Origin: a virus | Lineage: Duplodnaviria; Caudoviricetes | Reading direction: 5' to 3' (one strand) | Length of the DNA: 27,481 nucleotides | IMG/VR virus record: IMGVR_UViG_3300044454_000013 | Location: 1 to 27,481 of that record | In this document: positions 220 to 17,684 of the stretch, piece by piece | How the letters are laid out: the number at the start of each line of letters is the position of its first letter | Numbering within the stretch: the stretch's first letter is position 1 | Notes under the pieces: model-generated | The model's database searches: none | Told to the model about the DNA's origin: nothing | The model's input: only the letters and a program-made list of their open reading frames with translations | Translations under genes and position numbers: made by a program

Positions 220-3045
220 ATGACTATTTCGTATTTCTCGACTTCCTTTTCTGGCGGCGGTACGAACACGGGTTCCGGGGGGTACTACAAGGATCTAACA
301 ATCACGGGTGCCCAGGTTGGAGATAGACTTGTCGTTATTGGCGCTGCAGATAATAAAGTGAGTACTCTTACTGAGTGTCTGCTTGTCACAACAGCCGGTA
401 GCACTTCGGCCTGGACCATTAAACAAAGCGCTGGAGCAAACGACCAAGATGTTGACTACATTCTTGGTACAGCTACAGTTTCTGCTGCCGGATCGATTAC
501 CGTTCGTGTCACCCTTCGTAGTAGCACAGATATGGGTATCGCCGCGTGGCTAATCCCTGCCGCTGAGCATTCAGGCACGCCGGTTTTCACTACCGTTGAG
601 GGAGCAAACGCAACCGGTTCCATATCGGCGACCATTTCCGGAACGTCTAATGTTTTCGGACTCGGCGCCGACTGGGCCGCCATCGATGCGGGCGCAGCGA
701 CAATGCAGCCGACCGGCACCACGCACTCCGACACGTTCGTTAGCGGACAGTACAATGTCTGGGTTGGCTCGTGGGCATCACAGGCCGCTGGGACGCGCCT
801 ATATGGTCTCGCAACAGACCCTGGAGCTACTGATTACGCGATTGCTCTATGCTCAGTTCCGGTTGCCGGCGGTGGAGGAGGTCCTTCCCCAATCGCACTA
901 AGAGCAGCAGGCACCGCAACAGCAGCAACAGCAGCAGTAACGGCAGTCAACCCAGCAGTCCCAACTGGAGCGACAACCGGCGATCTGTCAGTTCTTACTG
1001 TCTGGATGAAACCGTTTGGCACAACTATAACAACGCCTTCCGGTTGGACCAAGATTGGTGAAGCCACAAACGGTACGACCGCCGCAGGCACGGATACCGG
1101 TTCTACTAAGGTTGCGGTCTTTGTTAAGGAGTCCGCCGCTGTTGGTGCCATTGGTGCACTGACTTTGGCCGGTTCTCCAAACAGCGTTGGCGCCGTTATT
1201 AACACGTATTCTAAAGATGCGGCCTATTCTTGGGATTACTCGCAGTTCACAACCGGTGGTGATACAACCGATGGCACTAACTATTCAGCAACGGGTGCTG
1301 CAGGAATTGCTGTTGCTGCTCTAGACTGGGTCTTAGCATCGACTGCCGTCAACGGCGACGTTGGAACGCAATCGGCTGATGCTATTGGCGGAATGTCCGG
1401 AGCCACGCTGGGCACTTTAGTTGTAAGACAATCGGCAGATGTTACAACCGGAACTGACACACACGGCGAGGTCGTAGACGTTCCGGTCACCGCCGGTTCA
1501 TCAAGCGCCGCTCCGACGTTCACATACACTAACGCAAGTTCTGGTTCTGGCACCACCTTATGGCTTCGCCTTCGCCAGGTTGGTGGAATTCCTTCAGGAT
1601 CGTCTACTGGATCGACCGTCTTTACTGGAAGTTCTACGGGCGCACGATCATCAAAAGGATCTGCGACGGGAACGACCGCCTTTACAGGATCGTCTACCGG
1701 AAAGAAGCTCCTTCAAGGTAGTGCTAGCGGCGCAACAGTCTTTGTTGGCTCAGCAACGGGCAAGGAAACACCAAAGGGTTCTGCTACTGGCTCGACAACT
1801 TTGGTTGGTTCTGCTTCTGGTAAGAAGATTCAAAATGGAAGTGGAACTGGCGCAACGATCTTTGTAGGTTCGGCAACCGGAAAGGAAAATCCTAAGGGTT
1901 CGGCCACTGGATCAACGGTTTATGTAGGATCCGCTACAGGCACAAGTGCTGCCCCACCAAAGCAAGGCTCGGCATCCGGAACAACAACGTATATCGGCTT
2001 TTCGACTGGTAAGCAAACGCCCAAGGGTTCTGCATCGGGGTCAACAACCTTTACGGGTTCAGCGACTGGTAAGGAAACACCAAAGGGTTCCTCTACAGGT
2101 ACGACAATCTATGCTGGCGCAGCCTCCGGAGCTAAGCCGCTCTACGGATCTGCTTCTGGAACAACAACCCACACTGGTTCGGCAACGGGCAAGGAAACAC
2201 CAAAGGGTTCTGCTACCGGGACTACCGTTTACTCTGGTTCCGCCGCAGGAGCAAAGCCGCTCCGAGGTTCGGCTTCTGGGTCGACCACAACCGTCGGTAC
2301 TTCTACGGGCAAGCGGACACCAAAGGGTTTGACTACTGGAACCACAACGTACACCGGATCTGCCTCAGGCCTTCGTGCTTCTCGAGGCTCGGCTACGGGT
2401 ACCACAATTTATGCAGGTAGTGCACAAGCTGGCGATGGTCAGTATGGTTATGCTGTAGGCGACACGACATTTGCCGGCTCTGCTTCAGGTACGCGCGCAC
2501 CCAAGGGTTCCGCCTCAGGAAGTACTTTAGAAAGTGGCACTGCATCTGGAACGAAGTCTGTTCGTGGATCCGCAACCGGTTCTACAACTCATACTGGTTT
2601 AGCAACTGGCAAGGAAACACCAAAGGGTTCGGCAACTGGCTCGACAATCCATGCTGGCTCGGCAACTGGAGCAAAGCCTCTTCGAGGTTCAGCTTCTGGT
2701 GTAACAACACACATTGGCGCATCAACGGGCCGCCATATTTCGTATGGAACTGCTAGTAGTACAACTACCCATGTCGGAACGTCAGCTGGAAGTCGTACGC
2801 CAAAGGGTTCTACCACAAGTATCACGACTTTTGTTGGTCTCGCTACTGGCAGTATGCCTTCTGGTGGATCTGCTTATGGCGAAACAACATATATTGGTCT
2901 TGCTACTGGTAAGAATGAGATTAAGCCAAGCGAAAACGCTATTGTTACTGTCACTCTCCTGCCGCGCCGGTGGGAAGGACTACTCTTGCCACAAAGGTGG
3001 GATGGTTCTATTCAACCACGACGATGGGAAGGACATCTCCTATGA
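220..3045 (+). CDS. Large G/S/T/A-rich putative virion fibre/adhesin (minor structural protein) with a tandem-repeat stalk
   Basis: 941-aa ORF. Two ~220-aa beta-rich domains are separated by a GGGGGPSP linker, followed by 22 ~20-aa repeats and three PxRW[E/D]G repeats at the C-terminus. Stop overlaps the next start (ATGA). Confidence 0.7.
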   Translation: MTISYFSTSFSGGGTNTGSGGYYKDLTITGAQVGDRLVVIGAADNKVSTLTECLLVTTAGSTSAWTIKQSAGANDQDVDYILGTATVSAAGSITVRVTLRSSTDMGIAAWLIPAAEHSGTPVFTTVEGANATGSISATISGTSNVFGLGADWAAIDAGAATMQPTGTTHSDTFVSGQYNVWVGSWASQAAGTRLYGLATDPGATDYAIALCSVPVAGGGGGPSPIALRAAGTATAATAAVTAVNPAVPTGATTGDLSVLTVWMKPFGTTITTPSGWTKIGEATNGTTAAGTDTGSTKVAVFVKESAAVGAIGALTLAGSPNSVGAVINTYSKDAAYSWDYSQFTTGGDTTDGTNYSATGAAGIAVAALDWVLASTAVNGDVGTQSADAIGGMSGATLGTLVVRQSADVTTGTDTHGEVVDVPVTAGSSSAAPTFTYTNASSGSGTTLWLRLRQVGGIPSGSSTGSTVFTGSSTGARSSKGSATGTTAFTGSSTGKKLLQGSASGATVFVGSATGKETPKGSATGSTTLVGSASGKKIQNGSGTGATIFVGSATGKENPKGSATGSTVYVGSATGTSAAPPKQGSASGTTTYIGFSTGKQTPKGSASGSTTFTGSATGKETPKGSSTGTTIYAGAASGAKPLYGSASGTTTHTGSATGKETPKGSATGTTVYSGSAAGAKPLRGSASGSTTTVGTSTGKRTPKGLTTGTTTYTGSASGLRASRGSATGTTIYAGSAQAGDGQYGYAVGDTTFAGSASGTRAPKGSASGSTLESGTASGTKSVRGSATGSTTHTGLATGKETPKGSATGSTIHAGSATGAKPLRGSASGVTTHIGASTGRHISYGTASSTTTHVGTSAGSRTPKGSTTSITTFVGLATGSMPSGGSAYGETTYIGLATGKNEIKPSENAIVTVTLLPRRWEGLLLPQRWDGSIQPRRWEGHLL
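1597..2925 (+). repeat. 22 degenerate coding tandem repeats of ~60 nt (20 aa; consensus GSATGTTx[F/Y/H]xGSATGKxTPK)
   Basis: Counted from the translation, GSSTGSTVFTGSSTGARSSK to GSAYGETTYIGLATGKNEIK; one unit is 23 aa. The DNA word aaggaaacaccaaagggttc recurs several times. Confidence 0.9.
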
Positions 3046-3311
3046 CATATCCGCAAGAAACTAAGGAATTTCAGCCCATTAGAGTGAAGGTTGATGGCGT
3101 AGAAGTAGTTGAGGGAGTTGAGGTAGCTGTTATTCCGCCGTCAACTCGTCCGATTGAAACGGACTGGGTAGCAGCTACCTCCCTCAGCAATGGACATCTC
3201 GCAGTTTTGGTAGATGGTCTTGCGCCAGCGGTCTGGAATGTTTGGGCCCGAGTTACAACCGTAGACGAGAAGGCTGTCGTCTACTGCGGAAACTTCAAGG
3301 TGACGGCATGA
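3042..3311 (+). CDS. Small beta-rich hypothetical protein (89 aa), possibly a fibre-associated/BppU-like virion protein
   Basis: ATG at 3042 overlaps the upstream stop (ATGA) and follows GGAAGGA. MTYPQETKEFQPIRVKVDG... The ORF-track start at 2970 is probably too early. Confidence 0.65.
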   Translation: MTYPQETKEFQPIRVKVDGVEVVEGVEVAVIPPSTRPIETDWVAATSLSNGHLAVLVDGLAPAVWNVWARVTTVDEKAVVYCGNFKVTA

Positions 3312-3949
3312 CTCTTCCCGAATTTGACTGGACTGCTTTAACAGACGTTGAAGTGTCTGAACTAAAGATGCAGGCAATCCTGGAAGAGGAGCGTCGCTAT
3401 CGAGTTGCACAAGCACCAACACAAGCTGAGGCTATCTCAGTTGAGTATTTCAAAGACATCGGTATGGTCGAGGGTTCCGAGTGGGTTCAGCCTACTGGAG
3501 CCCATGACGCTTACCCTTTAAACTATATTGTAGTAAAGGGTGGTCATTCCTGGAAGTCTCTGATTTCAGCGAATGTATGGGCTCCTGGTCTTGATCCACG
3601 ATGGTGGGAAGATCAAACGCCAGTCGATGATGGGGTTTGGAATCCAAATTACCATTCATATTTGATTGACGATGTCGTCCTTTACAACGGCATCTCATAC
3701 AAATGCTTGCAGGCTCATACATCTCAGCCCGATTGGACTCCTTTGGCAGTTCCTGCGCTATGGTTTGACATGACGCCGATTCCAGATCCGCCACCAGTCA
3801 CAATTGCCGAATGGGACCCAAACGCTAAAACATATTTGGTAAATGACGAAGTGGTCTATCGGGGATTCACATACAAGTGTATCCAGGCACATACATCGCA
3901 AGCAGGCTGGACTCCATTAGCCGTAGCAAGTCTTTGGACTCAACTCTAG
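3308..3949 (+). CDS. Carbohydrate-binding protein with CBM5/12 (chitin-binding type) modules
   Basis: ATG at 3308 (ATGA overlap). Contains a WVQPTGAHDAY...W module and two near-identical W[N/D]PNxxxYLxxDxVxYxGxxYKCxQAHTSQxxWTPLAVxxLW modules, typical of CBM5/12. Confidence 0.8.
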   Translation: MTLPEFDWTALTDVEVSELKMQAILEEERRYRVAQAPTQAEAISVEYFKDIGMVEGSEWVQPTGAHDAYPLNYIVVKGGHSWKSLISANVWAPGLDPRWWEDQTPVDDGVWNPNYHSYLIDDVVLYNGISYKCLQAHTSQPDWTPLAVPALWFDMTPIPDPPPVTIAEWDPNAKTYLVNDEVVYRGFTYKCIQAHTSQAGWTPLAVASLWTQL

Positions 3950-3962
3950 AAGGGAGGTAGCC

Positions 3963-4463
3963 ATGAATGAAGTTGACAACGTTCTCGCACAGTACGGCGT
4001 CCGAGGTATGCATTGGGGCGTGATTACCAAGGCGAAGAATGCCTACACCAAGGCACGAACCGAGGATACGACTCCCGTTCCAGTCTCGATTACGGCAAAG
4101 CCGGGTAAGAAGATCAAGACTGAAGGCGGTAAGTACCTCCCAACGTCGGAAGATGCCAAGATTGCGGCTATCGCTAAGCAGAAGGCTAAGGGTTCTGGAC
4201 TGCAGTCGCTATCGAACGACGAGATGAAGGTACTTGTTGATCGAATGGGTCTAGAAGAGCGATATTCTAAGATGACTCCGAGGGAAATCTCGGTTGGTCA
4301 GAAGATGGCTCAAGACATCATGAATTCTCCGGTCCCAGAACTGGCGATGATAGGCGCAAAGGTCAAGTATGGCGATTCGCCCGATCCTCGCGTTCAGGTC
4401 GGTTTCATGGTAGCCGATACAATCATCAAATATGCCAAACAGAACGGCAAAAAGAAGAAGTAG
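3963..4463 (+). CDS. Basic protein with N-terminal LAQYGVRGMHWGV tag (tag family member 1)
   Basis: GGGAGG RBS. The N-terminus matches the tag of ORFs 6587 and 7645. Lys-rich, with an LSNDEMKVLVDRMGLEERY helix. Confidence 0.8.
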   Translation: MNEVDNVLAQYGVRGMHWGVITKAKNAYTKARTEDTTPVPVSITAKPGKKIKTEGGKYLPTSEDAKIAAIAKQKAKGSGLQSLSNDEMKVLVDRMGLEERYSKMTPREISVGQKMAQDIMNSPVPELAMIGAKVKYGDSPDPRVQVGFMVADTIIKYAKQNGKKKK

Positions 4464-4472
4464 GATGGTCTA

Positions 4473-4829
4473 ATGCGTAAATGTCTCCATTGTCAGACGC
4501 CACTGTCTCGCCGAGAAACAGAGAAGCGTGCCGAATTCTTAGGTCGAAAGTACTGCAATCTACAGTGTAGCGTTGCCGATCGTCCTCGGGTTAATGCTGA
4601 GAAACGAGCGGCACTGGATCTCAAAGATAAAGAAGCGCCTCCAGAGACTAATGGTTTGACATTTACGCATCAGGAAATTCTGCATAGAGCACATATGGCC
4701 GCTCCACAAATCCCGATTTCAATTCTAGATGCTGTTATTAAGGATATTGAACCGATGCTTTCAGCAAACGTTCGACATCGGTTGTTGGGTCCAATAGCAG
4801 CGAATATTAGAGCCCAACGAGCATCGTAG
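4473..4829 (+). CDS. Hypothetical protein with an N-terminal putative zinc finger
   Basis: CLHC...KYCNLQC cysteine pattern; fills the gap between adjacent + strand genes. Confidence 0.65.
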   Translation: MRKCLHCQTPLSRRETEKRAEFLGRKYCNLQCSVADRPRVNAEKRAALDLKDKEAPPETNGLTFTHQEILHRAHMAAPQIPISILDAVIKDIEPMLSANVRHRLLGPIAANIRAQRAS

Positions 4830-4844
4830 GAAGGAGGATTGGCA

Positions 4845-6590
4845 ATGAGTCTATCAAACACTGCGACACCGTACTACTACGGACAGTTTCGTGATGCAGT
4901 CTTGCGCGGAGACGTACCGGTTAACCGCGAGATTGCTCTCGAGATGAATCGCATTGATCAACTCATTGCCAATCCTAAGATTTACTACGATGACAAAGCG
5001 GTTGAAGGCTTTGTTCGTTATTGCGAGAACGAACTTACGCTAACCGACGGCAGCGATCTGCATCTTTTACCGTCGTTCAAACTATGGGCCGAGCAATTGC
5101 TAGGATGGTACTACTTTGTTGAGCGTAGTGTCTACCAACCCTCGGAAGACAACCATGGTGGACGGTACGTTACAAAGACCATCAAGAAGCGCCTGACAGT
5201 CAAGCAGTATCTGATCGTCGCCCGAGGTGCTGCCAAGTCGATGTACGCCTCGTGTCTTCAGAGTTACTTCCTGAATGTCGACACGGCAACGACACATCAG
5301 ATCACAACAGCACCGACCATGAAGCAGGCAGACGAAGTCATGTCTCCTTGTCGAACGGCGATCGTGCGCTCTCGCGGACCGCTGTTCAAGTTCCTCACAG
5401 AGGGCTCGATGCAGAACACTACGGGCTCTAGGGCCAATCGTGTGAAGTTGGCTTCCACAAAGAAGGGCATCGAGAACTTCCTGACTGGATCCTTGCTCGA
5501 AGTTCGTCCTATGACGATCAACAAGCTCCAGGGTCTGCGTCCTAAGGTCTCAACAATCGATGAGTGGTTGTCTGGTGACGTCCGAGAGGACGTAATTGGT
5601 GCTGTCGAGCAAGGCGCATCGAAGTTGGACGACTATGTCATCGTCGCAATCAGCTCTGAAGGAACGGTCCGTAACGGTTCCGGCGACACCGTCAAAATGG
5701 AACTACAAGACATCCTTAAGGGTGACTACCTCGCGCCACACATTTCAATCTTCCACTACAAGTTGGACAGTATCGAGGAAGTTGCCGACCCAGCGATGTG
5801 GCTTAAGGCCAATCCGAACCTAGGTCGTACTGTTTCTTATGAGACATACCATCTAGATGTGGAACGAGCTGAGAAAGCTCCTGCTGCACGCAATGACATC
5901 CTCGCCAAGCGCTTTGGAATCCCAATGGAGGGCTACACTTACTTCTTCACCTACGAAGAAACTCTTCCGCATCGCCGTCGTGACTTCTGGCAGATGCCTT
6001 GTGCTCTTGGTGCTGACCTTTCGCAGGGCGATGACTTCACCGCCTTCACATTCCTCTTCCCGCTTCCGGGTGGTAAGTTCGGAGTCAAGACTCGTAGTTA
6101 TATTTCCTCACTGACTCTCATGAAACTACCTGGCGCTATGCGTCAGAAGTACGACGAGTTCATCAACGAGGGCAGTCTCCACGTTCTCGAGGGAATCATT
6201 CTTGACATGATGGAGGTATACGAGGATCTCGATCGTTTCATCCAAGAAAACGAGTACGATGTTCGTACTTTTGGTTATGACCCTTACAATGCCAAGGAAT
6301 TCGTCACTCGCTGGGAACAGGAGAACGGACCATTCGGTATTGAGAAGGTAATCCAGGGTGCTAGGACGGAGTCTGTCCCTCTTGGTGAGTTGAAGACTTT
6401 GAGTGAAGAAAGAATGCTCATCTTCGATCAGGATCTTATGACCTTTGCAATGGGTAATGCCATTACAATCGAGGACACCAACGGTAACCGCAAGCTCATG
6501 AAGAAGCGTCAAGATGAGAAGATCGATAATGTGTCGGCAATGCTCGACGCATACGTAGCGTACAAAGCAAACAAGGAGGCGTTCGAGTGA
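4845..6590 (+). CDS. terL: Terminase large subunit
   Basis: AAGGAGG RBS 7 nt before ATG 4845. Walker A-like VARGAAKS, Walker B STIDEW, coupling motif ISSEG, nuclease acidic motifs GADLSQGDD, GYDPYNA and KIDNVSA. Confidence 0.95.
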   Translation: MSLSNTATPYYYGQFRDAVLRGDVPVNREIALEMNRIDQLIANPKIYYDDKAVEGFVRYCENELTLTDGSDLHLLPSFKLWAEQLLGWYYFVERSVYQPSEDNHGGRYVTKTIKKRLTVKQYLIVARGAAKSMYASCLQSYFLNVDTATTHQITTAPTMKQADEVMSPCRTAIVRSRGPLFKFLTEGSMQNTTGSRANRVKLASTKKGIENFLTGSLLEVRPMTINKLQGLRPKVSTIDEWLSGDVREDVIGAVEQGASKLDDYVIVAISSEGTVRNGSGDTVKMELQDILKGDYLAPHISIFHYKLDSIEEVADPAMWLKANPNLGRTVSYETYHLDVERAEKAPAARNDILAKRFGIPMEGYTYFFTYEETLPHRRRDFWQMPCALGADLSQGDDFTAFTFLFPLPGGKFGVKTRSYISSLTLMKLPGAMRQKYDEFINEGSLHVLEGIILDMMEVYEDLDRFIQENEYDVRTFGYDPYNAKEFVTRWEQENGPFGIEKVIQGARTESVPLGELKTLSEERMLIFDQDLMTFAMGNAITIEDTNGNRKLMKKRQDEKIDNVSAMLDAYVAYKANKEAFE

Positions 6591-7633
6591 CTGATCCAAC
6601 GAGAGAAGAAGCTCTAGCGCACTTTGGTGTCAAGGGCCAGAAATGGGGCGTCCGTAATGAAGATAAGTTAGTTGGACAAGATCCTGCTAAGAAAGCCGAA
6701 ACTGGTTCGGACAAAGCCAAACAAAATGAGCTAACCAAGCAGTACATGGCAATCAAGCCGCCTAAGGTGTCTAAAGAAAAAGATGCCCAAATGCACGCCG
6801 AAAGTAAGGCCAAGTTCAAAGCCAAGTTCGAGTCGAACGACGCAAAGTCTGGTGAGGGAAGTTTAAAAGAGTGGCGCCCGACTAAGAAGCAAGTTGCTAC
6901 CGTTGCCGTTGGGGCCGCTGCAGTTGGATTGCTTATTTACGGTGTGAAGTCTGGAAAACTTGATTCCGCTGGCAAATCCTACATGGATACAGTTGCCAAA
7001 TGGACTGGTGGCCCAGGAGATCCAATCGCCCCCGGTGCATTTAATCTTAATGTTACCAAATCTGCAGCAACTTCTTGGGGCGCTAAAGGTTATATTCAGC
7101 CATCTTCTTTTGCTCATGAAGGATCAACCTTTCCTGTAGGTCACGTCTTTCATAGATTGACAACCTCTTCTGAAACTGGTTTTCGTCAAGCAGGCACTTA
7201 TTGTACTGATTCTGTCGACGATTTCAATCGATACGTAACCGCTTTTCGGAAAGAATTATATTCCAATGAATTGCATCATGTTACGTTTAAAGCCAAGCAA
7301 GAAATCAAGGTTCCGGGGTTAACTGACACTTTGGAAAGTTTACGTCGGTCTCTTGGTACTGACGCTACACCCGAGGATGCTCATAGTTGGTACAATCGAC
7401 TTTCGGGCGGCGGTTGGGATAAAAGCGATCCGGTTGTTAGTAATTTCTTTAAGGAACTAACTAAGAACGGCTATCATGCCATCGTTGATGAGATGGATGC
7501 CGGAGTTATCGGAGAACGGCCGCTTGTCTTCTTTGATCATAAAGCTGTAACTAAGAAAACGGCCGAACTAATGACATCCGAAGGAATTAAAGCTGCAGAA
7601 GCCGCTTTGACCGAGATCTCAAACCGAAAGTAG
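6587..7633 (+). CDS. Tagged protein (LAHFGVKGQKWGVR) with a hydrophobic segment and a C-terminal putative ADP-ribosyltransferase-like domain
   Basis: GTG overlaps the terminase stop; AGGAGG RBS. Order: tag, Lys-rich linker, VATVAVGAAAVGLLIYGV, then FHR...TYCT...GYHAIVDEMD...ERPLVFFD. The ORF is solid; the ART call is inference. Confidence 0.55.
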   Translation: MTDPTREEALAHFGVKGQKWGVRNEDKLVGQDPAKKAETGSDKAKQNELTKQYMAIKPPKVSKEKDAQMHAESKAKFKAKFESNDAKSGEGSLKEWRPTKKQVATVAVGAAAVGLLIYGVKSGKLDSAGKSYMDTVAKWTGGPGDPIAPGAFNLNVTKSAATSWGAKGYIQPSSFAHEGSTFPVGHVFHRLTTSSETGFRQAGTYCTDSVDDFNRYVTAFRKELYSNELHHVTFKAKQEIKVPGLTDTLESLRRSLGTDATPEDAHSWYNRLSGGGWDKSDPVVSNFFKELTKNGYHAIVDEMDAGVIGERPLVFFDHKAVTKKTAELMTSEGIKAAEAALTEISNRK

Positions 7634-7644
7634 GAGGCGTCAAA

Positions 7645-8487
7645 GTGACTCAACCAACACGAGAAGAAGCTTTGGCGCACTTCGGAGTCAAAGGAATGCA
7701 CTGGGGAGTTCGAAAGAATGAAACTGCTCCTCCTAAAGCAAACACCGGAGTAGTCGATCCTGTATCGGCTGCCGTGACCATTTATGCTGTTTCTTTTCTA
7801 GCAATGTATGGCAGCATGGCCGTTGCAAAAACGTTTGATAGCGGAAATGCCCGAGTCCTAGTTAATAAAGGTAAGCGCGCAGTTACCTTCCAAAAAGATG
7901 GACCACAGTATAATCGGGCTCCGGCATTAGCTAAAAAGAACATGTCTGAAGCACAGATCATGCAGTCTGTAGTTGCACCTATTAATCCTGGGTACGGTAA
8001 GCACGGCACAAAGCAGAACTGCCGTCGTTGCACGCTCGCCTACGAGATGCGTCGTCGTGGAATGGATGTAAAAGCTACTACCTCGACTATGGCTACAGGA
8101 CAGCATGGTACAGGACTTCGTAAGGCAACGGGCTCGAAAACCAAGAAAATCGACTGGGGTGAGAATAAAGTCTATCCGTTTGGAACCAACCCGAAGGATC
8201 GCTCGTCCGCACCAAAGGCTATATTTAAGCGACTCAGCACACAGCCAAATGGCAGTCGTGGTGAACTAGGCGTTGGTTGGAAGATGGGTGGCGGACACAG
8301 TCTTGCCTACGAGATTGTTCAAGGTAAGCCCGTTATATTCGATACTCAGCGAGGACTCAAGATTAAAACTGCCGCTGAACTTACCAAAGCTTATGATTTA
8401 GAAATTGGCGCTGCAGCGATCACAAGACTTGACAACAAGAAATTAAATGAACAATGGCTGGAAAGATGGGTGCAGAATAATGATTGA
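7645..8487 (+). CDS. Tagged protein (LAHFGVKGMHWGVR) with a C-terminal papain-fold toxin (Tox-PL-like deamidase/peptidase) domain
   Basis: AGGAGG RBS + GTG. Order: tag, hydrophobic segment, then QNCRRCTLAYEMRRRG, GGHSLAYE and VIFDTQ, matching the Cys-His-Asp/Gln pattern of papain-fold toxins. Confidence 0.75.
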   Translation: MTQPTREEALAHFGVKGMHWGVRKNETAPPKANTGVVDPVSAAVTIYAVSFLAMYGSMAVAKTFDSGNARVLVNKGKRAVTFQKDGPQYNRAPALAKKNMSEAQIMQSVVAPINPGYGKHGTKQNCRRCTLAYEMRRRGMDVKATTSTMATGQHGTGLRKATGSKTKKIDWGENKVYPFGTNPKDRSSAPKAIFKRLSTQPNGSRGELGVGWKMGGGHSLAYEIVQGKPVIFDTQRGLKIKTAAELTKAYDLEIGAAAITRLDNKKLNEQWLERWVQNND

Positions 8488-8707
8488 TATTTTGGAAGCA
8501 TCGAGCATTATCAAGTCCAATCTTCCTGGCTCTACGATTCAGAAGTCTGCCGAATACCAAGGCCAATTCCTGTTCTTAGTCGTGCCTAGTGATCCTGATG
8601 AGTTTCCGATCTTCTTCTCGGTGAATCGTCAGACAAAGGCATTCCGCGATTTCTCTCCGTTCGATGATGGCAATCCTGCTGAGATCGAAAAGCTATTTCT
8701 CACCTAA
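8480..8707 (+). CDS. Small protein (75 aa), candidate immunity/partner of the papain-fold toxin
   Basis: ATG at 8480 overlaps the toxin-like gene end by 8 nt. Small, acidic and aromatic (FLFLVVPSDPDEFPIFFSVNRQT). Function inferred from position only. Confidence 0.55.
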   Translation: MIDILEASSIIKSNLPGSTIQKSAEYQGQFLFLVVPSDPDEFPIFFSVNRQTKAFRDFSPFDDGNPAEIEKLFLT

Positions 8708-8728: not shown

Positions 8729-10060
8729 ATGGCCAACTTTGGTGCTCGTTTGAGGCATTCCTGGAATGCATTTCTGAATAAGGATACGCAGCAGGCAGAA
8801 GTTGCTTGGAATCTTGGCCCGAGCTATTCGATTCCGCCCAATCGAACTCGAATGTATATTTCAAATGAGCGATCGATCATCTCTGCCATCTATACGCGCC
8901 TAAGTGTGGACGTGGCCTCCAATCCAATTCTGCACGTTCGTCTTGATGAGAACCGCCGTTTTGTTGGCGAGGTTGACAGCGGTTTGAACAACTGTTTGAC
9001 AATTGAGGCTAATCTCGATCAGGCAGCCCGCGCCTTTCGACAGGATATTGCTCTAACACTCTTCGACAAGGGCGTTATTGCGCTAGTTCCAGTCGACACC
9101 ACTACCAATCCCAAGATCTCAAACAGCTTTGACATCAAGACTCTTCGTGTTGGTGAGATCGTCCAGTGGTATCCAAAGTACGTCAAGGTCAGCGTATACA
9201 ACGAGGCAAAGGGGCAGCGCGAGGAAGTAACTCTTCCAAAGACCTTGGTTGCTATCGTTGAGAATCCGCTATATTCTATCATGAATGAGCCGAACTCAAC
9301 CTTGCAGCGTCTTATTCGTAAACTCGGAATGCTGGACTCGGTTGATGAGGCTACTAGTTCTGGTAAGCTGGACTTGATCATTCAGCTTCCGTACGTTATT
9401 AAGTCTGAGGCCCGTCGGCAGCAGGCAGATCAGCGTCGTAAGGATATTGAGTTCCAACTCAAGGGTAGTCAGTATGGCATTGCCTACACGGATGGAACGG
9501 AGAAGATCACCCAGCTCAATAGGCCTACTGAGAACAACCTTCTCAAGCAGATTGAGTACTTGACGGCGATGCTTTATGGTCAACTGGGTCTGACTCCAGA
9601 GATTATGAATGGTACTGCGGACGAACAGGCTATGCTCAACTACAACAACCGTACGATTGAGCCGATTCTTGCGTCTATCACTGAGGCAATGAAGCGAACG
9701 TTCCTTACAAAGACGGCACGTTCTCAACTTCAGTCGGTTGAGTACTTCAGTGATCCATTCAAGTTGGTTCCTGTTGGCAAGCTTGCTGAACTGGCTGACG
9801 TCTTCTCGCGCAATGAGATCATTGCTCCTAACGAGTTCCGTCAGATTCTGCGCTTCAAGCCCTCTAAGGATCCAAAGGCTGACGAATTGCGGAATAGTAA
9901 CATGCCACAACAGCCCGATCCAGCTGCCGATCCAGCTGCAGCTCCTGTTGTCGAAGCTCCCGTCGATGAAGGTGATGACGGAGAGATTGTTGCCGGTGCT
10001 TTCGATAGTGTCAACGGTGTGCTAGACGACATCTTTGCTGAGTTGGGGGTTGAGGAATGA
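8729..10060 (+). CDS. Portal protein
   Basis: AAAGGAGG RBS; 443 aa; lies between terminase and protease/capsid; HK97-like portal features (IYTRLSVDVAS, NYNNRTIEPI, NEFRQILRFKP); acidic C-terminal tail. Confidence 0.92.
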   Translation: MANFGARLRHSWNAFLNKDTQQAEVAWNLGPSYSIPPNRTRMYISNERSIISAIYTRLSVDVASNPILHVRLDENRRFVGEVDSGLNNCLTIEANLDQAARAFRQDIALTLFDKGVIALVPVDTTTNPKISNSFDIKTLRVGEIVQWYPKYVKVSVYNEAKGQREEVTLPKTLVAIVENPLYSIMNEPNSTLQRLIRKLGMLDSVDEATSSGKLDLIIQLPYVIKSEARRQQADQRRKDIEFQLKGSQYGIAYTDGTEKITQLNRPTENNLLKQIEYLTAMLYGQLGLTPEIMNGTADEQAMLNYNNRTIEPILASITEAMKRTFLTKTARSQLQSVEYFSDPFKLVPVGKLAELADVFSRNEIIAPNEFRQILRFKPSKDPKADELRNSNMPQQPDPAADPAAAPVVEAPVDEGDDGEIVAGAFDSVNGVLDDIFAELGVEE

Positions 10061-10635
10061 TCGATGATTCCGCCCTTCTCCACGCAGAGAAACCGTATGA
10101 TGCTAAGAAGGCCAGGGAGTACTATCTTCGAACCCGGAAGCTAAAGGGACGTAAAAAGGGGAGTGGACAACCCACACCCACTGGACGAACCCCAGGGGGT
10201 GTCAAGCCAAAAGCTGCTCCGCACCCCGCCAAGCCAAGGAAGACGAAGGCCCAAAAGCAAAAGGAAGCCGAAGTTCAGGTTGCGGCTCTTAAGAAGCGTC
10301 TTGCTCGTTTGAAAGAAGCTCTTTCGGAGTTAGTTAAAGCAGCAAAGTTGCGTAGTGGTGTTGAAACGAAGACCGATAAGGCCAAGTCCAAAGCCCAAGC
10401 GAATTCTGATGCTAAGTCTAGGAAACCTTTAACGGCTCGCCAAAAGAGCGAAGCGGCTAAGCGTTCTAAGGAAAACTACGATAAGAAAAAGCGTCCTCTA
10501 TCTTCCGATAAGGACATTGCTGAACTTCAACAGCAGATCCGCGACATCCGAGCTAAGATTAAGAACGCAATTGAAGACGCTAAGAAGACAGCGGCAACCA
10601 AGTCCAAATCCCAAACGGCATCGAAAGGCCGTTGA
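10057..10635 (+). CDS. Highly basic coiled-coil protein, putative internal capsid/DNA-binding core protein
   Basis: ATGA overlap with portal; very K/R/A-rich; begins MIDDSALLHAEKPYDAKKAREYYLRTRKLKGR. Confidence 0.7.
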   Translation: MIDDSALLHAEKPYDAKKAREYYLRTRKLKGRKKGSGQPTPTGRTPGGVKPKAAPHPAKPRKTKAQKQKEAEVQVAALKKRLARLKEALSELVKAAKLRSGVETKTDKAKSKAQANSDAKSRKPLTARQKSEAAKRSKENYDKKKRPLSSDKDIAELQQQIRDIRAKIKNAIEDAKKTAATKSKSQTASKGR

Positions 10636-10661: not shown

Positions 10662-12677
10662 ATGGAAGCTGATTTCAGCGGTTACGCCACGAAGGCAGGT
10701 CTCAAGTGCTCCGACGGTCGAACTATCATGCCCGATGCATTCAAGCACAATGACGGTATGACGGTCCCGCTCGTTTGGCAGCATGGTCACAATGACGTTG
10801 GCAATGTTCTCGGTCATGCTGTTCTCGAGAATCGTGCCGATGGCGTCTATGCTTACGGATTCTTCAATGGAACTGAGGCAGGCCAGAGCGCAAAGGTTCT
10901 GGTCCAGCACAAGGACATCACCATGATGTCCATCTATGCAAACAAGCTCGTGGAGAAGGCCAAGTCGGTTCTTCACGGATCTATCCGGGAGGTTAGCCTG
11001 GTTCTCTCAGGTGCCAATCCGGGCGCTCTTATCGACAACGTCAATCTGGCTCACTCTGACGGTGAGGTCGAGACGCTTGAGGATGAGGCCATCATCTACA
11101 CTGGTCTGACCCTTGAGCATGAGAATCTGTCTGAGGATGAGGTCGAGCACGCCGACCCCGCCGCAGATGGCGAGAAGACTGTCCAGGACGTCTACGACTC
11201 CCTCACTGAGGAGCAGAAGAATGTCGTCCACTTCATGATCGGCGCCGCACTTGAGGCTGCTGATAATACTGCACAGCACTCCGATGACGACCAGTCTGAA
11301 GAGGACACTACTAATGAGGATGAGTCTGAGGTTTCCCATGAGGGTGCCGCTGATGAGTCTGATGACGACAATCCCGAGGGCGACCTCAACCACCAGGAAG
11401 GTACCGAAATGACCCACAACGTCTTCGAGCAGAATGGCACTCCTGTCGCTTCTGCTAAGGCAACCCTTACGCACGACCAGCTGACCGCCATTGTTGACGA
11501 CGCCAAGAAGTACGGCTCGTTCAAGGACGCGTTCCTTTCTCACGCTGTGACCTACGGCATCGAGAACATCGATTTCCTGTTCCCGGATGCGACTTTGCTG
11601 TCCAACAGCCCCGAGATGATCACGCGTCGCCAGGAGTGGGTCTCGACCTTCCTCTCGGGCGTTCGTAAGTCGCCGTTCTCGCGGATCAAGACCATGTCTG
11701 CGGACCTGACGCTTGAGGATGCTCGGGCCAAGGGTTACGTCAAGGCCAGTCTCAAGAAGGAGGAGTGGTTCGCGCTTGCGAAGCGTACCACCACACCCAC
11801 CACGATCTACAAGAAGCAGAAGCTGGATCGCGACGACATCGTTGACATCACCGATCTGGATGTCGTGGCTTGGCTGAAGGCTGAGATGCGTATCATGCTC
11901 GATGAGGAGATCGCGCGCGCTTGCCTCGTTGGCGACGGTCGTCAGATCGACTCCGACGACAAGGTTGACGAGACGGCTATCCGTCCCATCGCCTTCGAGG
12001 ACGACTTCTACGCGCACAAGGTCACCATGCAGCAGACTGTCACGGGCGACGGGATTGTCGACGCTATTGTCGGCGCTCGCGTGAACTACCGTGGCCAGGG
12101 CAACCCGACGTTCTTCTGCACCGAGGCACTGCTCACTGAGCTGCTTCTGATCAAGGATGACAACAAGCGTCGACTGTACCCGACTCAGGGTGAGCTGGAG
12201 ACTGCCTGCCGCGTTGCCAAGATCGTTACGGTTCCTGTCATGGAGACCATGCGGACCAACACTGGCGATCTGATCGGCATTCTGGTTAACCTGAGCGACT
12301 ACACCGTTGGCGCCTCAAAGGGCGGACAGGTTTCGATGTTCGATGATTTCGATATCGACTACAACCAGTACAAGTACCTGATGGAGACCCGCATGTGCGG
12401 CGCTCTGACTGGGTTCAAGACTGCTGTCGTCATTTCTCGCAGCACGCTTGGTGCTTCTGTCACGCCTGCCGTCCCGACCTTCGTGGCTTCCACGGGTGTT
12501 GTGACGATCCCGGCGACGGCTAACGTCGTCTACAAGATGGATGGCGTTACCAAGACCGCTGGCGCTCAGACGGCCATCGCGTCGCTCTCCACCACGGTGG
12601 TTACCGCAGAGCCTGCGGCCAACTACTACTTCCCGCACAACTTCGATGCAGACTGGACGTTCACTCGTACCACCTGA
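10662..12677 (+). CDS. Prohead protease - acidic linker/scaffold - major capsid protein fusion with a C-terminal small beta (Ig-like) domain
   Basis: AAGGAG RBS, then MEADFSGYAT. HK97-type protease motifs VPLVWQH, MSIYAN and IREVSLVLSGANPGA. D/E-rich linker, then a capsid-sized domain (IYKKQKLDRDD, FDDFDIDYNQYKYLMETR). Strong C-ending codon bias. Confidence 0.92.
   Translation: MEADFSGYATKAGLKCSDGRTIMPDAFKHNDGMTVPLVWQHGHNDVGNVLGHAVLENRADGVYAYGFFNGTEAGQSAKVLVQHKDITMMSIYANKLVEKAKSVLHGSIREVSLVLSGANPGALIDNVNLAHSDGEVETLEDEAIIYTGLTLEHENLSEDEVEHADPAADGEKTVQDVYDSLTEEQKNVVHFMIGAALEAADNTAQHSDDDQSEEDTTNEDESEVSHEGAADESDDDNPEGDLNHQEGTEMTHNVFEQNGTPVASAKATLTHDQLTAIVDDAKKYGSFKDAFLSHAVTYGIENIDFLFPDATLLSNSPEMITRRQEWVSTFLSGVRKSPFSRIKTMSADLTLEDARAKGYVKASLKKEEWFALAKRTTTPTTIYKKQKLDRDDIVDITDLDVVAWLKAEMRIMLDEEIARACLVGDGRQIDSDDKVDETAIRPIAFEDDFYAHKVTMQQTVTGDGIVDAIVGARVNYRGQGNPTFFCTEALLTELLLIKDDNKRRLYPTQGELETACRVAKIVTVPVMETMRTNTGDLIGILVNLSDYTVGASKGGQVSMFDDFDIDYNQYKYLMETRMCGALTGFKTAVVISRSTLGASVTPAVPTFVASTGVVTIPATANVVYKMDGVTKTAGAQTAIASLSTTVVTAEPAANYYFPHNFDADWTFTRTT
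11395..11411 (+). promoter_or_regulatory. Candidate internal RBS and in-frame ATG within the protease-capsid gene
   Basis: AGGAAGG-taccgaa-ATG (ATG at 11409, MTHNVFEQ) at the end of the acidic linker, 7-nt spacing. Confidence 0.45.
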
Positions 12678-13314: not shown

Positions 13315-14196
13315 ATGACTGCACTTACCTGGGACGGAGCTGGCACGCGTCTTTTCGAGACCGGTGTCGACAAGGGTGTCCTGTACATTCCGGACGTTAA
13401 CGGCGTCTACAACACGGGCTTTGCTTGGAATGGTCTTACGACCGTCACCGAGGCGCCCTCGGGTGCTGAGTCTTCGGCTCAGTATGCGGACAACATCAAG
13501 TACCTGAACCTGATTTCGGCTGAGGACTTCGGAGCGACCATTGAGGCGTTCACGTATCCTCCCGAGTTCGCTCAGTGCGATGGTTCTGCGACGCCTCTGG
13601 CTGGACTTCGTCTTGGTCAGCAGACTCGTAAGATGTTTGGCATGTGCTTCCGCACTAAGGTTGGCGACGATCTGGTCGGCACCGACAAGGGCTACAAGCT
13701 CCACCTCATCTACAACTGCCAGGCAGCTCCGACGGAGAAGGCTTACGCCACTGTCAACGACTCTCCCGAGGCTATCACCTTCAGCTGGGAGGTCACGACC
13801 ACCCCGACTGCTGCCACCGGTTACAAGAACACGGCCAGTATCACGATCGACTCCACCCTGGTGGATCCGACCAAGCTGGCTGCGCTTGAGCTTGTTCTGT
13901 ATGGAACGGTTGGCGTTGAGCCACTGCTTCCGACCCCGGATGCTGTGATCGCAGCTCTGACCACGGTTCTCACTGTGGCTGACCTTGGTATCAGCACCAA
14001 CCAGCCGACTTATGTCGCTGGCACTCACATCATCACGCTTCCTGTTGTGACTGGTGTGACGTGGAAGATCAATGGCGTTACCAAGACCACTGGTGCTCAG
14101 CCTGCGCTGACCACGGGTCAGGTTGCCAACGTTACGGCGACTGCCTCAACTGGTTACCGTCTTGCTGGCGACAGTTCTTGGACGTTCAACTACTAA
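13315..14196 (+). CDS. Major tail (tube) protein with a C-terminal small beta domain
   Basis: AAAGGAAG RBS; LTWD...FETGVDKGVLY...AWNGL...YADNIKY...AFTYP...GYKLHLIYN...FSWE; high-expression codon bias. Confidence 0.9.
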   Translation: MTALTWDGAGTRLFETGVDKGVLYIPDVNGVYNTGFAWNGLTTVTEAPSGAESSAQYADNIKYLNLISAEDFGATIEAFTYPPEFAQCDGSATPLAGLRLGQQTRKMFGMCFRTKVGDDLVGTDKGYKLHLIYNCQAAPTEKAYATVNDSPEAITFSWEVTTTPTAATGYKNTASITIDSTLVDPTKLAALELVLYGTVGVEPLLPTPDAVIAALTTVLTVADLGISTNQPTYVAGTHIITLPVVTGVTWKINGVTKTTGAQPALTTGQVANVTATASTGYRLAGDSSWTFNY

Positions 14197-14223
14197 ACCG
14201 ATTAACAGACAGGAGGCCAGAGA

Positions 14224-14769
14224 GTGCTCACTATTACAGTTCCAGGAATTCAACTTTGGGATGAAGTTCTTGAAGAATTCACCAATGCTGAGGGTTTTAC
14301 GCTGGAGCTGGAGCACTCTCTGGTCTCACTGTCAAAATGGGAGTCGTTTTACGAAAAGCCGTTCTTAGGGACGGAAACTAAGACAAACGAAGAGACGATT
14401 TCCTACATCAAGTTTATGATTCAAACCCCGAATTTTCCCCCGGAGGTTTTTTCCAGACTGTCTGAGGACAACCTTTCGGAGATCAACAAGTACATTGATG
14501 CTAAGATGACTGCGACTTGGTTCTCTGAGATTGGAACAGCGACCAAGCGAAACACCGAGGTCATCACTGCAGAACTGATTTACTACTGGATGATCACGTT
14601 CAAAATTCCGATCGAGTTCCAGCACTGGCATCTCAATCGTCTGTTTACTCTTATCAAGATCTGTAACGTTAAGAATGCTCCTCCGAAAAAGATGAGTCGT
14701 AGCGACATCATTGCTCGGAATAGAGAACTGAATGAGCAACGTCGCGCACAACTCGGAACCACAGGATAG
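14224..14769 (+). CDS. Putative tail assembly chaperone-region protein
   Basis: AGGAGG RBS + GTG; directly after the major tail gene; [13 protein letters not shown] and [10 protein letters not shown]...[10 protein letters not shown] motifs. Confidence 0.65.
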
Positions 14770-14787
14770 CGAGAGGAGGCACTCACA

Positions 14788-15570
14788 ATGACCAGACTTG
14801 TATGGGGCGAAGAATCAGCCCGGCGTTACGAATACGGTATAGACAGGGGCGTCCTATTCCCTTCCGATGGTCCTGGAGTTGTTTGGAACGGTCTGGTCAA
14901 TGTTGAGGAGTCTTTTGTCGGCGGGGAGGTTACCTCGTTCCATTTCGACGGCATTAAGTACCTCGATACGGTCAGTCCCAAGAACTATCAGGCAACAATT
15001 ACGGCATTTTCTGCTCCGGAGGAATTTGCCCCCTGTGTAGGAGACAAATCGGTCATTCCGGGCTTTGTTCTGACAAGGCAACCACGCAACAGGTTCGGAT
15101 TCTCATACAGGACCGGCTATGGCAACGACTTAGGCTATAAGCTCCACCTGGTCTACAACGCCACAGCGAGTCCGACTGGCAAAGCATATTCGTCAATAAA
15201 CGCCTCTCCAAGTGCCGAGTCCTTGTCCTGGAAGATCGATGCCGTTCCTCCTGTAGCGACCACATACCGACCATCGGCGCACTATGTCCTTGACTCCACC
15301 AAGGTATCTGCATCAGCCCTAGAAGCAGTTGAGACCCTGCTCTATGGGTCGGCCAAACTAACTTCCAGATTGCCACTTGTTGAGGAACTCCTTGACCTTA
15401 TGTCAATCTGGACCCCACTTATTATCATCCCCCAGTCTGTTACTGGTTTATCACAGCTCACTGCTGGCTCGGGAGACCTGTATAAGACCAAGGTAGACGG
15501 TATCAACCGTGCGCTACCAAATACACGCTTGACTACATCGCCTACCAGCGGTTTCTATAGAATGGAGTAG
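14788..15570 (+). CDS. Major-tail-protein paralogue 2
   Basis: Visible homology to 13315-14196 (YEYGIDRGVL, WNGL, GIKY, GYKLHLVYNA, LSW). Confidence 0.85.
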   Translation: MTRLVWGEESARRYEYGIDRGVLFPSDGPGVVWNGLVNVEESFVGGEVTSFHFDGIKYLDTVSPKNYQATITAFSAPEEFAPCVGDKSVIPGFVLTRQPRNRFGFSYRTGYGNDLGYKLHLVYNATASPTGKAYSSINASPSAESLSWKIDAVPPVATTYRPSAHYVLDSTKVSASALEAVETLLYGSAKLTSRLPLVEELLDLMSIWTPLIIIPQSVTGLSQLTAGSGDLYKTKVDGINRALPNTRLTTSPTSGFYRME

Positions 15571-15573
15571 ACC

Positions 15574-16713
15574 ATGGCTTACGACCTTTACCCTGCCGTT
15601 GACCCTAGTTACAACTTCCCTCCCGAGGTCCGTGCCGCACTGGCTGCTTCTACGGAACTGCGTAATACCGTCGTTCCGATGACCACGACTCTCCGTAACA
15701 ACCTCACGGCTCCTGAGAAGTGGGATGGCCGTCTTATTCTGAATACGACTACCGATCGTCTCGAGCGCTGGGACGCCGGTCTGGCTGGATGGCAGCAGAT
15801 TGCAGATATTCTGGATCTTGCTCCATATACTGCGGCACTTCTGCAGAGGCCTGGACGTAATCGCATTATTAACGGCGATTTTTCTGTTAATCAAAGGGCG
15901 TTTACGACTACGTCAACAAACGCAATTTATGGATTAGATCGATGGCAACTCGGTTGCTCTGGTGGAACAGCCACCTATTCGATTGGTGGTTGGCCCCTCG
16001 GGGATCCTACAGTCTTAGAATCTCCTGCGAATTATGCTCGAATTGTTACTTCTGGGCAAGCTGTTGCAGGCGATTATGCCACATTAAGTCAGCCAATTGA
16101 ATCAGTTCGGACTCTTAGTGGCGAAACAGTTACGGTAAGTTTCTGGGCAAGGGCTTCGTCTGGAACACCTAAGGTTGCTGTTGCATTGGAGCAGTTCTTT
16201 GGCACGGGAGGCTCTCCTTCGGCTGACGTATATACCTTTGCAAATCAGGTCACTCTTACTACCACATTTGCGCGATATTCGGTTACTGTCGCCGTTCCAT
16301 CAATCTCTGGAAAGACCCTCGGCACGGCCTTAAACGACTACCTTCGGCTTCGTCTTTGGACGTCTGCAGGATCTACGTACAACGCCCGTACCGGCTCTCT
16401 GGGCATCCAGTCAGCTACCATCGACTTCTGGGGCGTCCAGGTCGAGAAGGGCAGCGTCGCAACCCCGTTCGAGGTTGAGGAGTACGGTACGAACCTGCGG
16501 AGGTGTCAGCGGTATTACTGGGCATGTTCTAACATAGTCGTTGAGACGTCAACCACGTATTCAACGCTTACCTTCCCAACACCAATGCGTGCAATTCCAA
16601 CTATTACTGGCGGTGGATCGGGCTTTGCGTTAGCGTATGGGAACGTCGATACATATGCTTTCTATCAAACCGCAAAAGCTGCTCAATCTTTACAGTTCAG
16701 TGCAGAACTTTAA
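15574..16713 (+). CDS. Minor tail/fibre protein 1 with a carbohydrate-binding-like (RNRIINGDF...CQRYY) domain
   Basis: Carries the NRIINGDFxVNQR, TVSFWARA, WGVQVEKGSVATPFE and LRRCQRYY motifs typical of phage fibre proteins. Confidence 0.8.
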   Translation: MAYDLYPAVDPSYNFPPEVRAALAASTELRNTVVPMTTTLRNNLTAPEKWDGRLILNTTTDRLERWDAGLAGWQQIADILDLAPYTAALLQRPGRNRIINGDFSVNQRAFTTTSTNAIYGLDRWQLGCSGGTATYSIGGWPLGDPTVLESPANYARIVTSGQAVAGDYATLSQPIESVRTLSGETVTVSFWARASSGTPKVAVALEQFFGTGGSPSADVYTFANQVTLTTTFARYSVTVAVPSISGKTLGTALNDYLRLRLWTSAGSTYNARTGSLGIQSATIDFWGVQVEKGSVATPFEVEEYGTNLRRCQRYYWACSNIVVETSTTYSTLTFPTPMRAIPTITGGGSGFALAYGNVDTYAFYQTAKAAQSLQFSAEL

Positions 16714-16733
16714 CTACACCATAAGGAGGTTCA

Positions 16734-17684
16734 ATGACTAAGCTCGTTTGGGACCAGGTCGGCGAACGTCTTTATGAGACTGGTGTTGACCGAGGAGTTC
16801 TATATTTGTCAGATGGTAGCGCGGTCCCCTGGAATGGACTCACCTCAGTCAACGAGACTGTGGATGATACAACATCTCCCATGTATTTCGACGGAGTAAA
16901 GTATCAGGATGTCCAGTCTACAGGGGACTTCGCTGCCACCCTGACAGCATTCACATATCCGGACGAGTTCCTGGCATATGAGGGTGTGGTAGACCTTGGT
17001 AATGGCGTACTCGTCGACGGTCAGAACTCGAAGGTATTCGGGCTCTCCTATCGTACGTATATAGCCAACGATGTAAACGGTACTGATCACGGGTACAAGA
17101 TCCATATTCTCTACAATCTGACAGCAACTCCGAATGCAGTCAGTTATTCTACAACGACCTCTGCCGCCGCTCCAGTTCCATTCAGTTGGACGCTAACCGG
17201 AGTACCTCAGGATGTAGACAATTACCGACCGACAGCACACGTTATATTTGACTCCAGATACCTAAGCCCAACCATGCTCGCCGGTCTAGAAGACCTGATC
17301 TATGGCGATATCGACACTCCAGCAACTCTCCCGACACTGGCAGAGCTGGTCGACTTCGTCTCACTCTGGGATCCGAAGCGCATCACGCCGCAGTCGGTTA
17401 CTGGTCTGTCCAATCTGGTCAATGGTATGGGCGATCTAACTCAGATCAACATCGATGGCATATTCTCAGCACTTCCCAGCACAAGACTGGTCCCTGCCCA
17501 GGTCGACGGGTTTTATACTCTCGGCCCAGGCGTTCTCATCATCACGTATCTGGGAAATGGGGTATGGACCGCCGAGGATTTCGGTGGCTATATTTCGATG
17601 CTGGATGCGGATACGTTCCAGATCGTCTCAGATACTGCAGTCTTTCTCGACGCGACTACATACACAATCTCTTCTCAGGGATAG
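16734..17684 (+). CDS. Major-tail-protein paralogue 3
   Basis: AAGGAGG RBS; LVWD...YETGVDRGVLY...WNGL...AFTYPDEF...GYKIHILYN; extra C-terminal ~50-aa module (ITYLGNGVWTAED...TYTISS). Confidence 0.85.
   Translation: MTKLVWDQVGERLYETGVDRGVLYLSDGSAVPWNGLTSVNETVDDTTSPMYFDGVKYQDVQSTGDFAATLTAFTYPDEFLAYEGVVDLGNGVLVDGQNSKVFGLSYRTYIANDVNGTDHGYKIHILYNLTATPNAVSYSTTTSAAAPVPFSWTLTGVPQDVDNYRPTAHVIFDSRYLSPTMLAGLEDLIYGDIDTPATLPTLAELVDFVSLWDPKRITPQSVTGLSNLVNGMGDLTQINIDGIFSALPSTRLVPAQVDGFYTLGPGVLIITYLGNGVWTAEDFGGYISMLDADTFQIVSDTAVFLDATTYTISSQG

Follow-up and report, generated by a model that had tools for sequence, protein, structure and literature searches.

The 27.5-kb partial phage contig IMGVR_UViG_3300044454_000013 (27,481 nucleotides; this whole stretch is called the window here) carries three open reading frames (ORFs) with one short N-terminal tag, DUF7211 (PF23847 in Pfam, which assigns the family no function): ORF1 (3963..4463; 166 amino acids), ORF2 (6587..7633; 348 amino acids) and ORF3 (7645..8487; 280 amino acids). 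All three are on the plus strand, as are the terminase, portal, capsid and small partner genes described below. Our explanation, which we hold to be probable with some reserve, is that DUF7211 is a protease-site tag for loading proteins into the head, carried by a constant core protein (ORF1) and by optional enzymes, and that a small gene behind ORF3 encodes the inhibitor of ORF3. Its Leu-x-His start is repeated through the spacer of the protease-capsid precursor, so that, judging by sequence, the tag probably is a cleavage site of the head protease, placed on head cargo. This point was absent from an earlier interpretation of the same DNA made from the letters alone (the sequence-only reading).

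Head protease, spacer and major capsid protein form one fusion in the window (10662..12677; PHROGs, Pfam and motif pattern). Its spacer (approximately 11046-11543) holds 10 His, nine of them with Leu, Ile, Val or Met at position -2, the last standing just before the capsid domain. In 31 of 40 protease-capsid fusions (nine were skipped, their anchor motifs being unmatched), Leu, Val, Ile or Met is found at -2 of 84% of spacer His, versus 23% for the background and 25% in a terminase control. Each analysed spacer ends, as judged by eye, in a hydrophobic-x-His site (Phe included) at most about 12 residues before the conserved start of the capsid domain. The tags show the same spacing, with Leu or Ile two residues before the His in 96% of 430. 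Leu-x-His is also present at residues 8-10 of the portal protein (8729..10060; PHROGs, Pfam) and at the start of a basic 192-amino-acid protein behind it (10057..10635; PHROG 12541, function not assigned), which bears a second conserved leader type. This second type (Leu-x-His, then Tyr-Asp and a basic stretch) was seen on the post-portal gene in 14 loci, some with two copies.

In phages T4 and SPN3US, one head protease cuts a motif common to capsid propeptides and internal-protein leaders (PMC5694885). Like the T4 capsid-targeting sequence and the leaders of the SPN3US and phiKZ ejection proteins, DUF7211 is a short common N-terminal leader on varied head proteins. As in T4 and SPN3US, the leader motif is repeated in the capsid precursor, here as a sequence pattern alone and with ORF1 as the exception. 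T4 also packages an ADP-ribosyltransferase (ART), Alt, and ORF2 is predicted to be ART-like. In contrast to T4, which cuts after Glu, the predicted cut falls after His, and the conserved stretch would remain on the mature protein; unlike T4 and SPN3US, the window phage is a siphophage with a protease-capsid fusion, and its leader cleavage is a prediction. Several points weigh against a protease site: Gln stands in the tag of ORF1 where other tags carry His; among 46 relatives the portal His is common but not universal, and many portals are without it; hydrophobic-x-His is common, too, in certain other small families; and the conserved tag residues fall after the predicted cut.

In a six-frame scan of the window, the pattern G[VI]xGxxWG has exactly three matches, at residues 12-14 of ORF1, ORF2 and ORF3; the mean for shuffled translations was 0.023 matches. 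Each ORF is preceded by a good ribosome-binding site, and all pass the DUF7211 cut-off of 27 bits (ORF1, 29.7; ORF2, 28.1; ORF3, 41.3). Behind the tag they have no common family, ORF1 being 17% and 27% identical to the other two by global alignment. The sequence-only reading was thus right in both its starting observations, a shared opening motif and unrelated remainders. No relevant paper on DUF7211, PF23847 or the spellings of the motif was found in the full-text literature covered (most subscription journals lie outside it); among the papers listed on polymorphic toxins, phage capsids, MuF and N-terminal motifs, none concerns the tag by its title or abstract.

At least 163 viral stretches match one narrow codon pattern of the tag (about 980 estimated), and 44 stretches in bacterial and archaeal assemblies match a second one; the tag-bearing sequences in bacterial assemblies are probably prophages. 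Among 415 distinct complete tagged proteins, a set enriched for papain because 79 of the loci were fetched with a papain query, 398 share locus and strand with a terminase, portal or capsid gene; for 397 of these a core head gene lies within 5 kb, in line with the expected position near terL and portal. Full tags are confined to the head module in three complete genomes (Madamato, four; ReqiPepy6, eight; 1706 gp07, two, one of them weak). A variant tag opens the putative RNA polymerases 1706 gp75, Madamato gp84 and ReqiPepy6 gp106 (L293:22082-25171, L295:2128-4914, L296:33543-36257), whose RdRP profile matches are weak; the same variant was seen on an ART-like protein, P0266. In database records, both the tagged gp07 and the polymerase gp75 of phage 1706 are labelled 'structural protein'. 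Polyproteins with two to four tags were found, with a hydrophobic-x-His motif at the start of each unit.

Tags resemble each other by genome. The six residues before the His are 49% identical between tags on unrelated cargo within a genome (196 pairs) and 28% identical between genomes (14,643 pairs), the latter value being also that for homologous cargo in different genomes. None of 300 label shuffles reached the within-genome similarity, and fourfold third positions are 50% alike within a genome versus 36%; kinship and base composition are uncorrected in these comparisons. In the window, the first twelve residues of ORF2 and ORF3 differ at one position. Such likeness would be expected if tags were recopied or converted within a genome, or if they adapted together to the protease of that genome.

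ORF1 (isoelectric point (pI) 9.7) consists of the tag and a conserved basic region; Pfam gave no domain besides the tag, and there is no hydrophobic helix (best 19-residue window, mean 0.43). A profile built from 28 relatives detects its family in 35 of the 42 distinct terminase loci whose upstream DNA was long enough, never in more than one copy per locus; in 33 the gene lies upstream of the terminase. The family, matched by 82 phage records, includes 1706 gp07 (E 1e-6), ReqiPepy6 gp13, Madamato gp7 and Sporto gp6. Core head-interior cargo is likely the better reading of ORF1 than a toxin. In two loci (L001:10681-12276, L177:3369-5066) a 2H phosphoesterase domain was observed upstream of an internal tag, joined to an ORF1-family unit.

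ORF3 combines the tag, a hydrophobic helix (residues 36-54, mean 1.71 over 19 residues) and a Tox-PL1 papain-fold domain (PF15644, E 5.5e-10, above cut-off). The Tox-PL1 signature, NC-H-DxQ (PMC3482391, section 12), is present: the triad C126, H218, D233 is intact, and N125-C126, H218 and D233-x-Q235 are invariant in 27 of 27 aligned sequences. By sequence ORF3 is a Tox-PL1 papain-fold enzyme, likely a cysteine peptidase or deamidase. In two unrelated phages the same domain is part of other fusions, with MuF in Bacteroides phage jmh42 and with VG15 in GardenState, so that the tag stands where other phages have MuF. As a separate observation, Mycobacterium phage Echild gp3 (L299:1543-2675), annotated 'VIP2-like toxin', matches the papain-fold family instead (E 1.8e-13); the small gene behind it weakly resembles the ORF3 partner, and the label is common to many similar records.

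The partner of ORF3 is a small untagged acidic protein (8480..8707; 75 amino acids, pI 4.3). Its start is most likely 8480, because relatives share it, and the 8-base overlap with the ORF3 stop bears out the overlapping small ORF described earlier. Small untagged ORFs follow 61 of 64 papain genes versus 38 of 294 other tagged genes; the same kind of neighbour test was applied to MuF toxins (PMC5576092). Of 76 papain domains, 67 have a match to a partner-family profile behind them (among the other nine, three belong to unrelated phages), and 73 of 75 such matches sit behind a papain gene. In 79 viral loci the papain gene stands before or after the terminase, the small gene moving along with it. 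In this linkage, ORF3 and the small ORF behave as a toxin gene and its immunity gene do. Partners are mostly acidic (pI below 6 in 37 of 43) and the ORF3 domain is basic. PepSY is a peptidase-propeptide family; its profile (PF03413) was matched by nine of 43 partners (best E 4.5e-4), the window protein being outside these nine. With Atlas TM values of 0.64-0.71 to PepSY clusters, below the tool's bar for naming a family, the window protein is predicted to have a weakly PepSY-like fold. None of the 43 partners matched Imm35 (PF15567) at E up to 0.1. The small protein is likely an inhibitor of ORF3. A partner-family protein with a C-terminal fusion to His sites and a tag was also observed (L206:800-1195).

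ORF2 has Leu-Ala-His at residues 10-12 of its tag, a basic linker, a hydrophobic helix (residues 102-120, mean 1.86 over 19 residues) and a C-terminal domain (approximately 7067-7630) without a Pfam match. Structure modelling predicts an unnamed ART/RES-like fold, in a fold family of 2,988 clusters. The domain is 8-15% identical to RES/ART comparators and has a conserved R-Y-D-Y-D-D set of its own; by its modelled fold, ORF2 is likely an NAD+-consuming or ADP-ribosylating enzyme. The two helices proposed earlier were recovered in ORF2 and ORF3, but the linker before the helix of ORF3 is short; of the two enzyme-like domains, that of ORF3 has a family match and that of ORF2 comes from the model. 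Small untagged neighbours show no excess behind ART-like genes (5 of 31 versus 38 of 294 other tagged genes, p 0.58), so that the adjacent immunity gene of the sequence-only reading has its signature for papain cargo and not for ART-like cargo.

On this explanation the system would work like the T4 capsid-targeting sequence and like MuF cargo; it is not a MuF toxin, and is a polymorphic toxin system only in part. As with MuF polymorphic toxins (PMC5576092, PMC3482391), the genes lie at a head-module site and encode variable enzymes, including Tox-PL1 and Ntox50, with a small downstream ORF. Unlike in those toxins, a 20-residue tag replaces the MuF domain, several tagged genes occur per genome, and most cargo is not toxin-like. 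MuF families were unmatched in the window ORFs scanned with Pfam (24) or PHROGs (10), in agreement with the earlier remark that no MuF gene is recognisable, and in 258 tagged proteins scanned with Pfam. ORF3 resembles the Tox-PL1/Imm35 pair (PMC3482391) in its NC-H-DxQ residues and its dedicated small neighbour, and differs in that its partners lean to PepSY. The predicted fold of ORF2 is like that of RES/ART-fold NAD+ enzymes (MbcT, ParT, anti-CRISPR entry 6kyf) and ART-PolyVal; in contrast to these, its family is without an antitoxin-like neighbour.

From these features we infer loading, cleavage, ejection, enzyme activity and inhibition, as follows. The tag would mark proteins for building into the prohead, where the head protease would cut it after the His, and the tagged proteins would be ejected along with the DNA. 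Two tiers of cargo may be distinguished, ORF1 as a near-constant basic core protein and ORF2 and ORF3 as optional enzymes, which would act on the newly infected cell in takeover or counter-defence. During late expression, ORF3 would be kept inactive in the cell that produces the phage by the untagged small protein. Further genes likely become cargo by receiving a copy of a tag that the phage already has.

A strict polymorphic toxin system, in which the tag delivers toxins of interchangeable kinds, lethal to rival cells or phages, and immunity genes protect the carriers, would account for the Tox-PL1, Ntox50, ART and DUF6883 cargoes, the linkage of papain gene and partner, and the tags in bacterial assemblies; the make-up of the cargo renders it quite unlikely. 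The diversity behind the tag is real: by BLAST, the 154 regions compared behind the tag form 71 clusters, and papain-fold, ART-like, GNAT, Ntox50 and 2H domains are among them, as diverse toxin or enzyme C-termini had been expected. They are, however, a minority. A non-tag Pfam domain (E <1e-4) was found in 12 of 138 tagged proteins (papain, 5; GNAT, 3; ART, 1; Ntox50, 1; DUF6883, 1; 2H, 1), and 120 further proteins (of 155 candidates) gave GNAT in three, 2H, papain and DUF2262 in one each, and one doubtful short match. Among 197 tagged proteins from two tag-pattern scans, 68 belong to the ORF1 family, 19 are ART-like and six papain, that is, 25 papain or ART-like proteins, to which folds that escaped detection could add; pI exceeds 9 in 190. 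Most tagged proteins are without a recognisable enzyme, and the claim that all cargoes are interchangeable toxins finds no support in these counts or in the conserved, single-copy, basic ORF1 family. The lack of a neighbour excess behind ART-like cargo and the variant tag on the polymerase likewise speak against it.

The abundance of small, very basic cargo and the near constancy of ORF1 would suit a structural inner core: the basic tag would bind to DNA, to the portal or to scaffold, the proteins would condense DNA or aid assembly and would remain in the head or leave it, in either case never entering the cell, and ORF3 would be an accessory maturation protease restrained by its partner; processing of proteins in MuF neighbourhoods by Tox-PL1 has been proposed (PMC3482391, section 12). 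This too is unlikely: the papain gene is optional (the six of 197), the scanned tagged proteins of ReqiPepy6 and 1706 have no papain match though their spacers hold His sites, and NAD-type, GNAT, RNase-type and 2H cargoes make poor sense as scaffold. If the tagged proteins were instead late-expressed factors that act in the cell outside the virion, with the His motif a metal- or nucleic-acid-binding peptide that resembles the spacer by chance, ORF1 without the His would be no exception and the hydrophobic helices of ORF2 and ORF3 could anchor in the membrane; the strict head-module position of the tags, the spacer His statistics and the 'structural protein' labels make this very improbable. 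The protease-site head-loading tag remains the preferred explanation.

The contig holds terminase, portal, protease-capsid fusion, tail genes and holin. The terminase large subunit (4845..6590; PHROGs, Pfam) is 82-86% identical to 60 Streptomyces and Gordonia phage terminases among the matches listed, and the phage is placed in the 1706/ReqiPepy6/BI/DJ lineage. That lineage spans actinobacteriophage clusters as well as Lactococcus phage 1706, ReqiPepy6 and Faecalibacterium phage Oengus, and a putative RNA polymerase is its signature gene (bioRxiv 10.1101/842583). Between ORF1 and the terminase lies an untagged 118-amino-acid ORF (4473-4829) with a Cys-rich N-terminus, a weak PHROG match to an HNH endonuclease family (E 0.004) and no Pfam match, possibly a homing-endonuclease remnant. 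A Gly/Ser/Thr-rich repetitive protein of 941 amino acids (220-3045), without a Pfam match and with none of its 10 His in the hydrophobic-x-His pattern, is probably a fibre; the protein at 3308-3949 has carbohydrate-binding module 5/12 repeats (Pfam). Read by eye, the stretch 13315-17684 has three major-tail-type genes that look alike (13315, 14788 and 16734), along with two related proteins, one at 15574 and the other at about 17693.

With this explanation, an abundant domain without an assigned function acquires a role that can be tested, and so do unannotated genes of cultured phages such as Arthrobacter phage Sporto, which has the papain gene with its partner, and Gordonia phage Secretariat. 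If it is true, phage heads can be loaded with effectors in another way than through MuF, the head protease is unusual in being specific for His, ORF3 and its partner are a new pair of peptidase and inhibitor, the ART-like family is both large and new, and a short tag becomes available for packaging proteins of choice into phages of Gram-positive hosts. More tentatively, we consider it possible that a peptide of 20 residues, cut at its His and recopied within genomes, serves a widespread phage lineage of Actinobacteria and gut Firmicutes as a universal code for loading the head. The code would ship RNA polymerase, core proteins and swappable effectors, among them a papain enzyme with an immunity protein of PepSY type and a new family of NAD+ enzymes (about 3,000 clusters); such a system would inject effectors independently of MuF and provide a portable packaging tag for phages of Gram-positive hosts.
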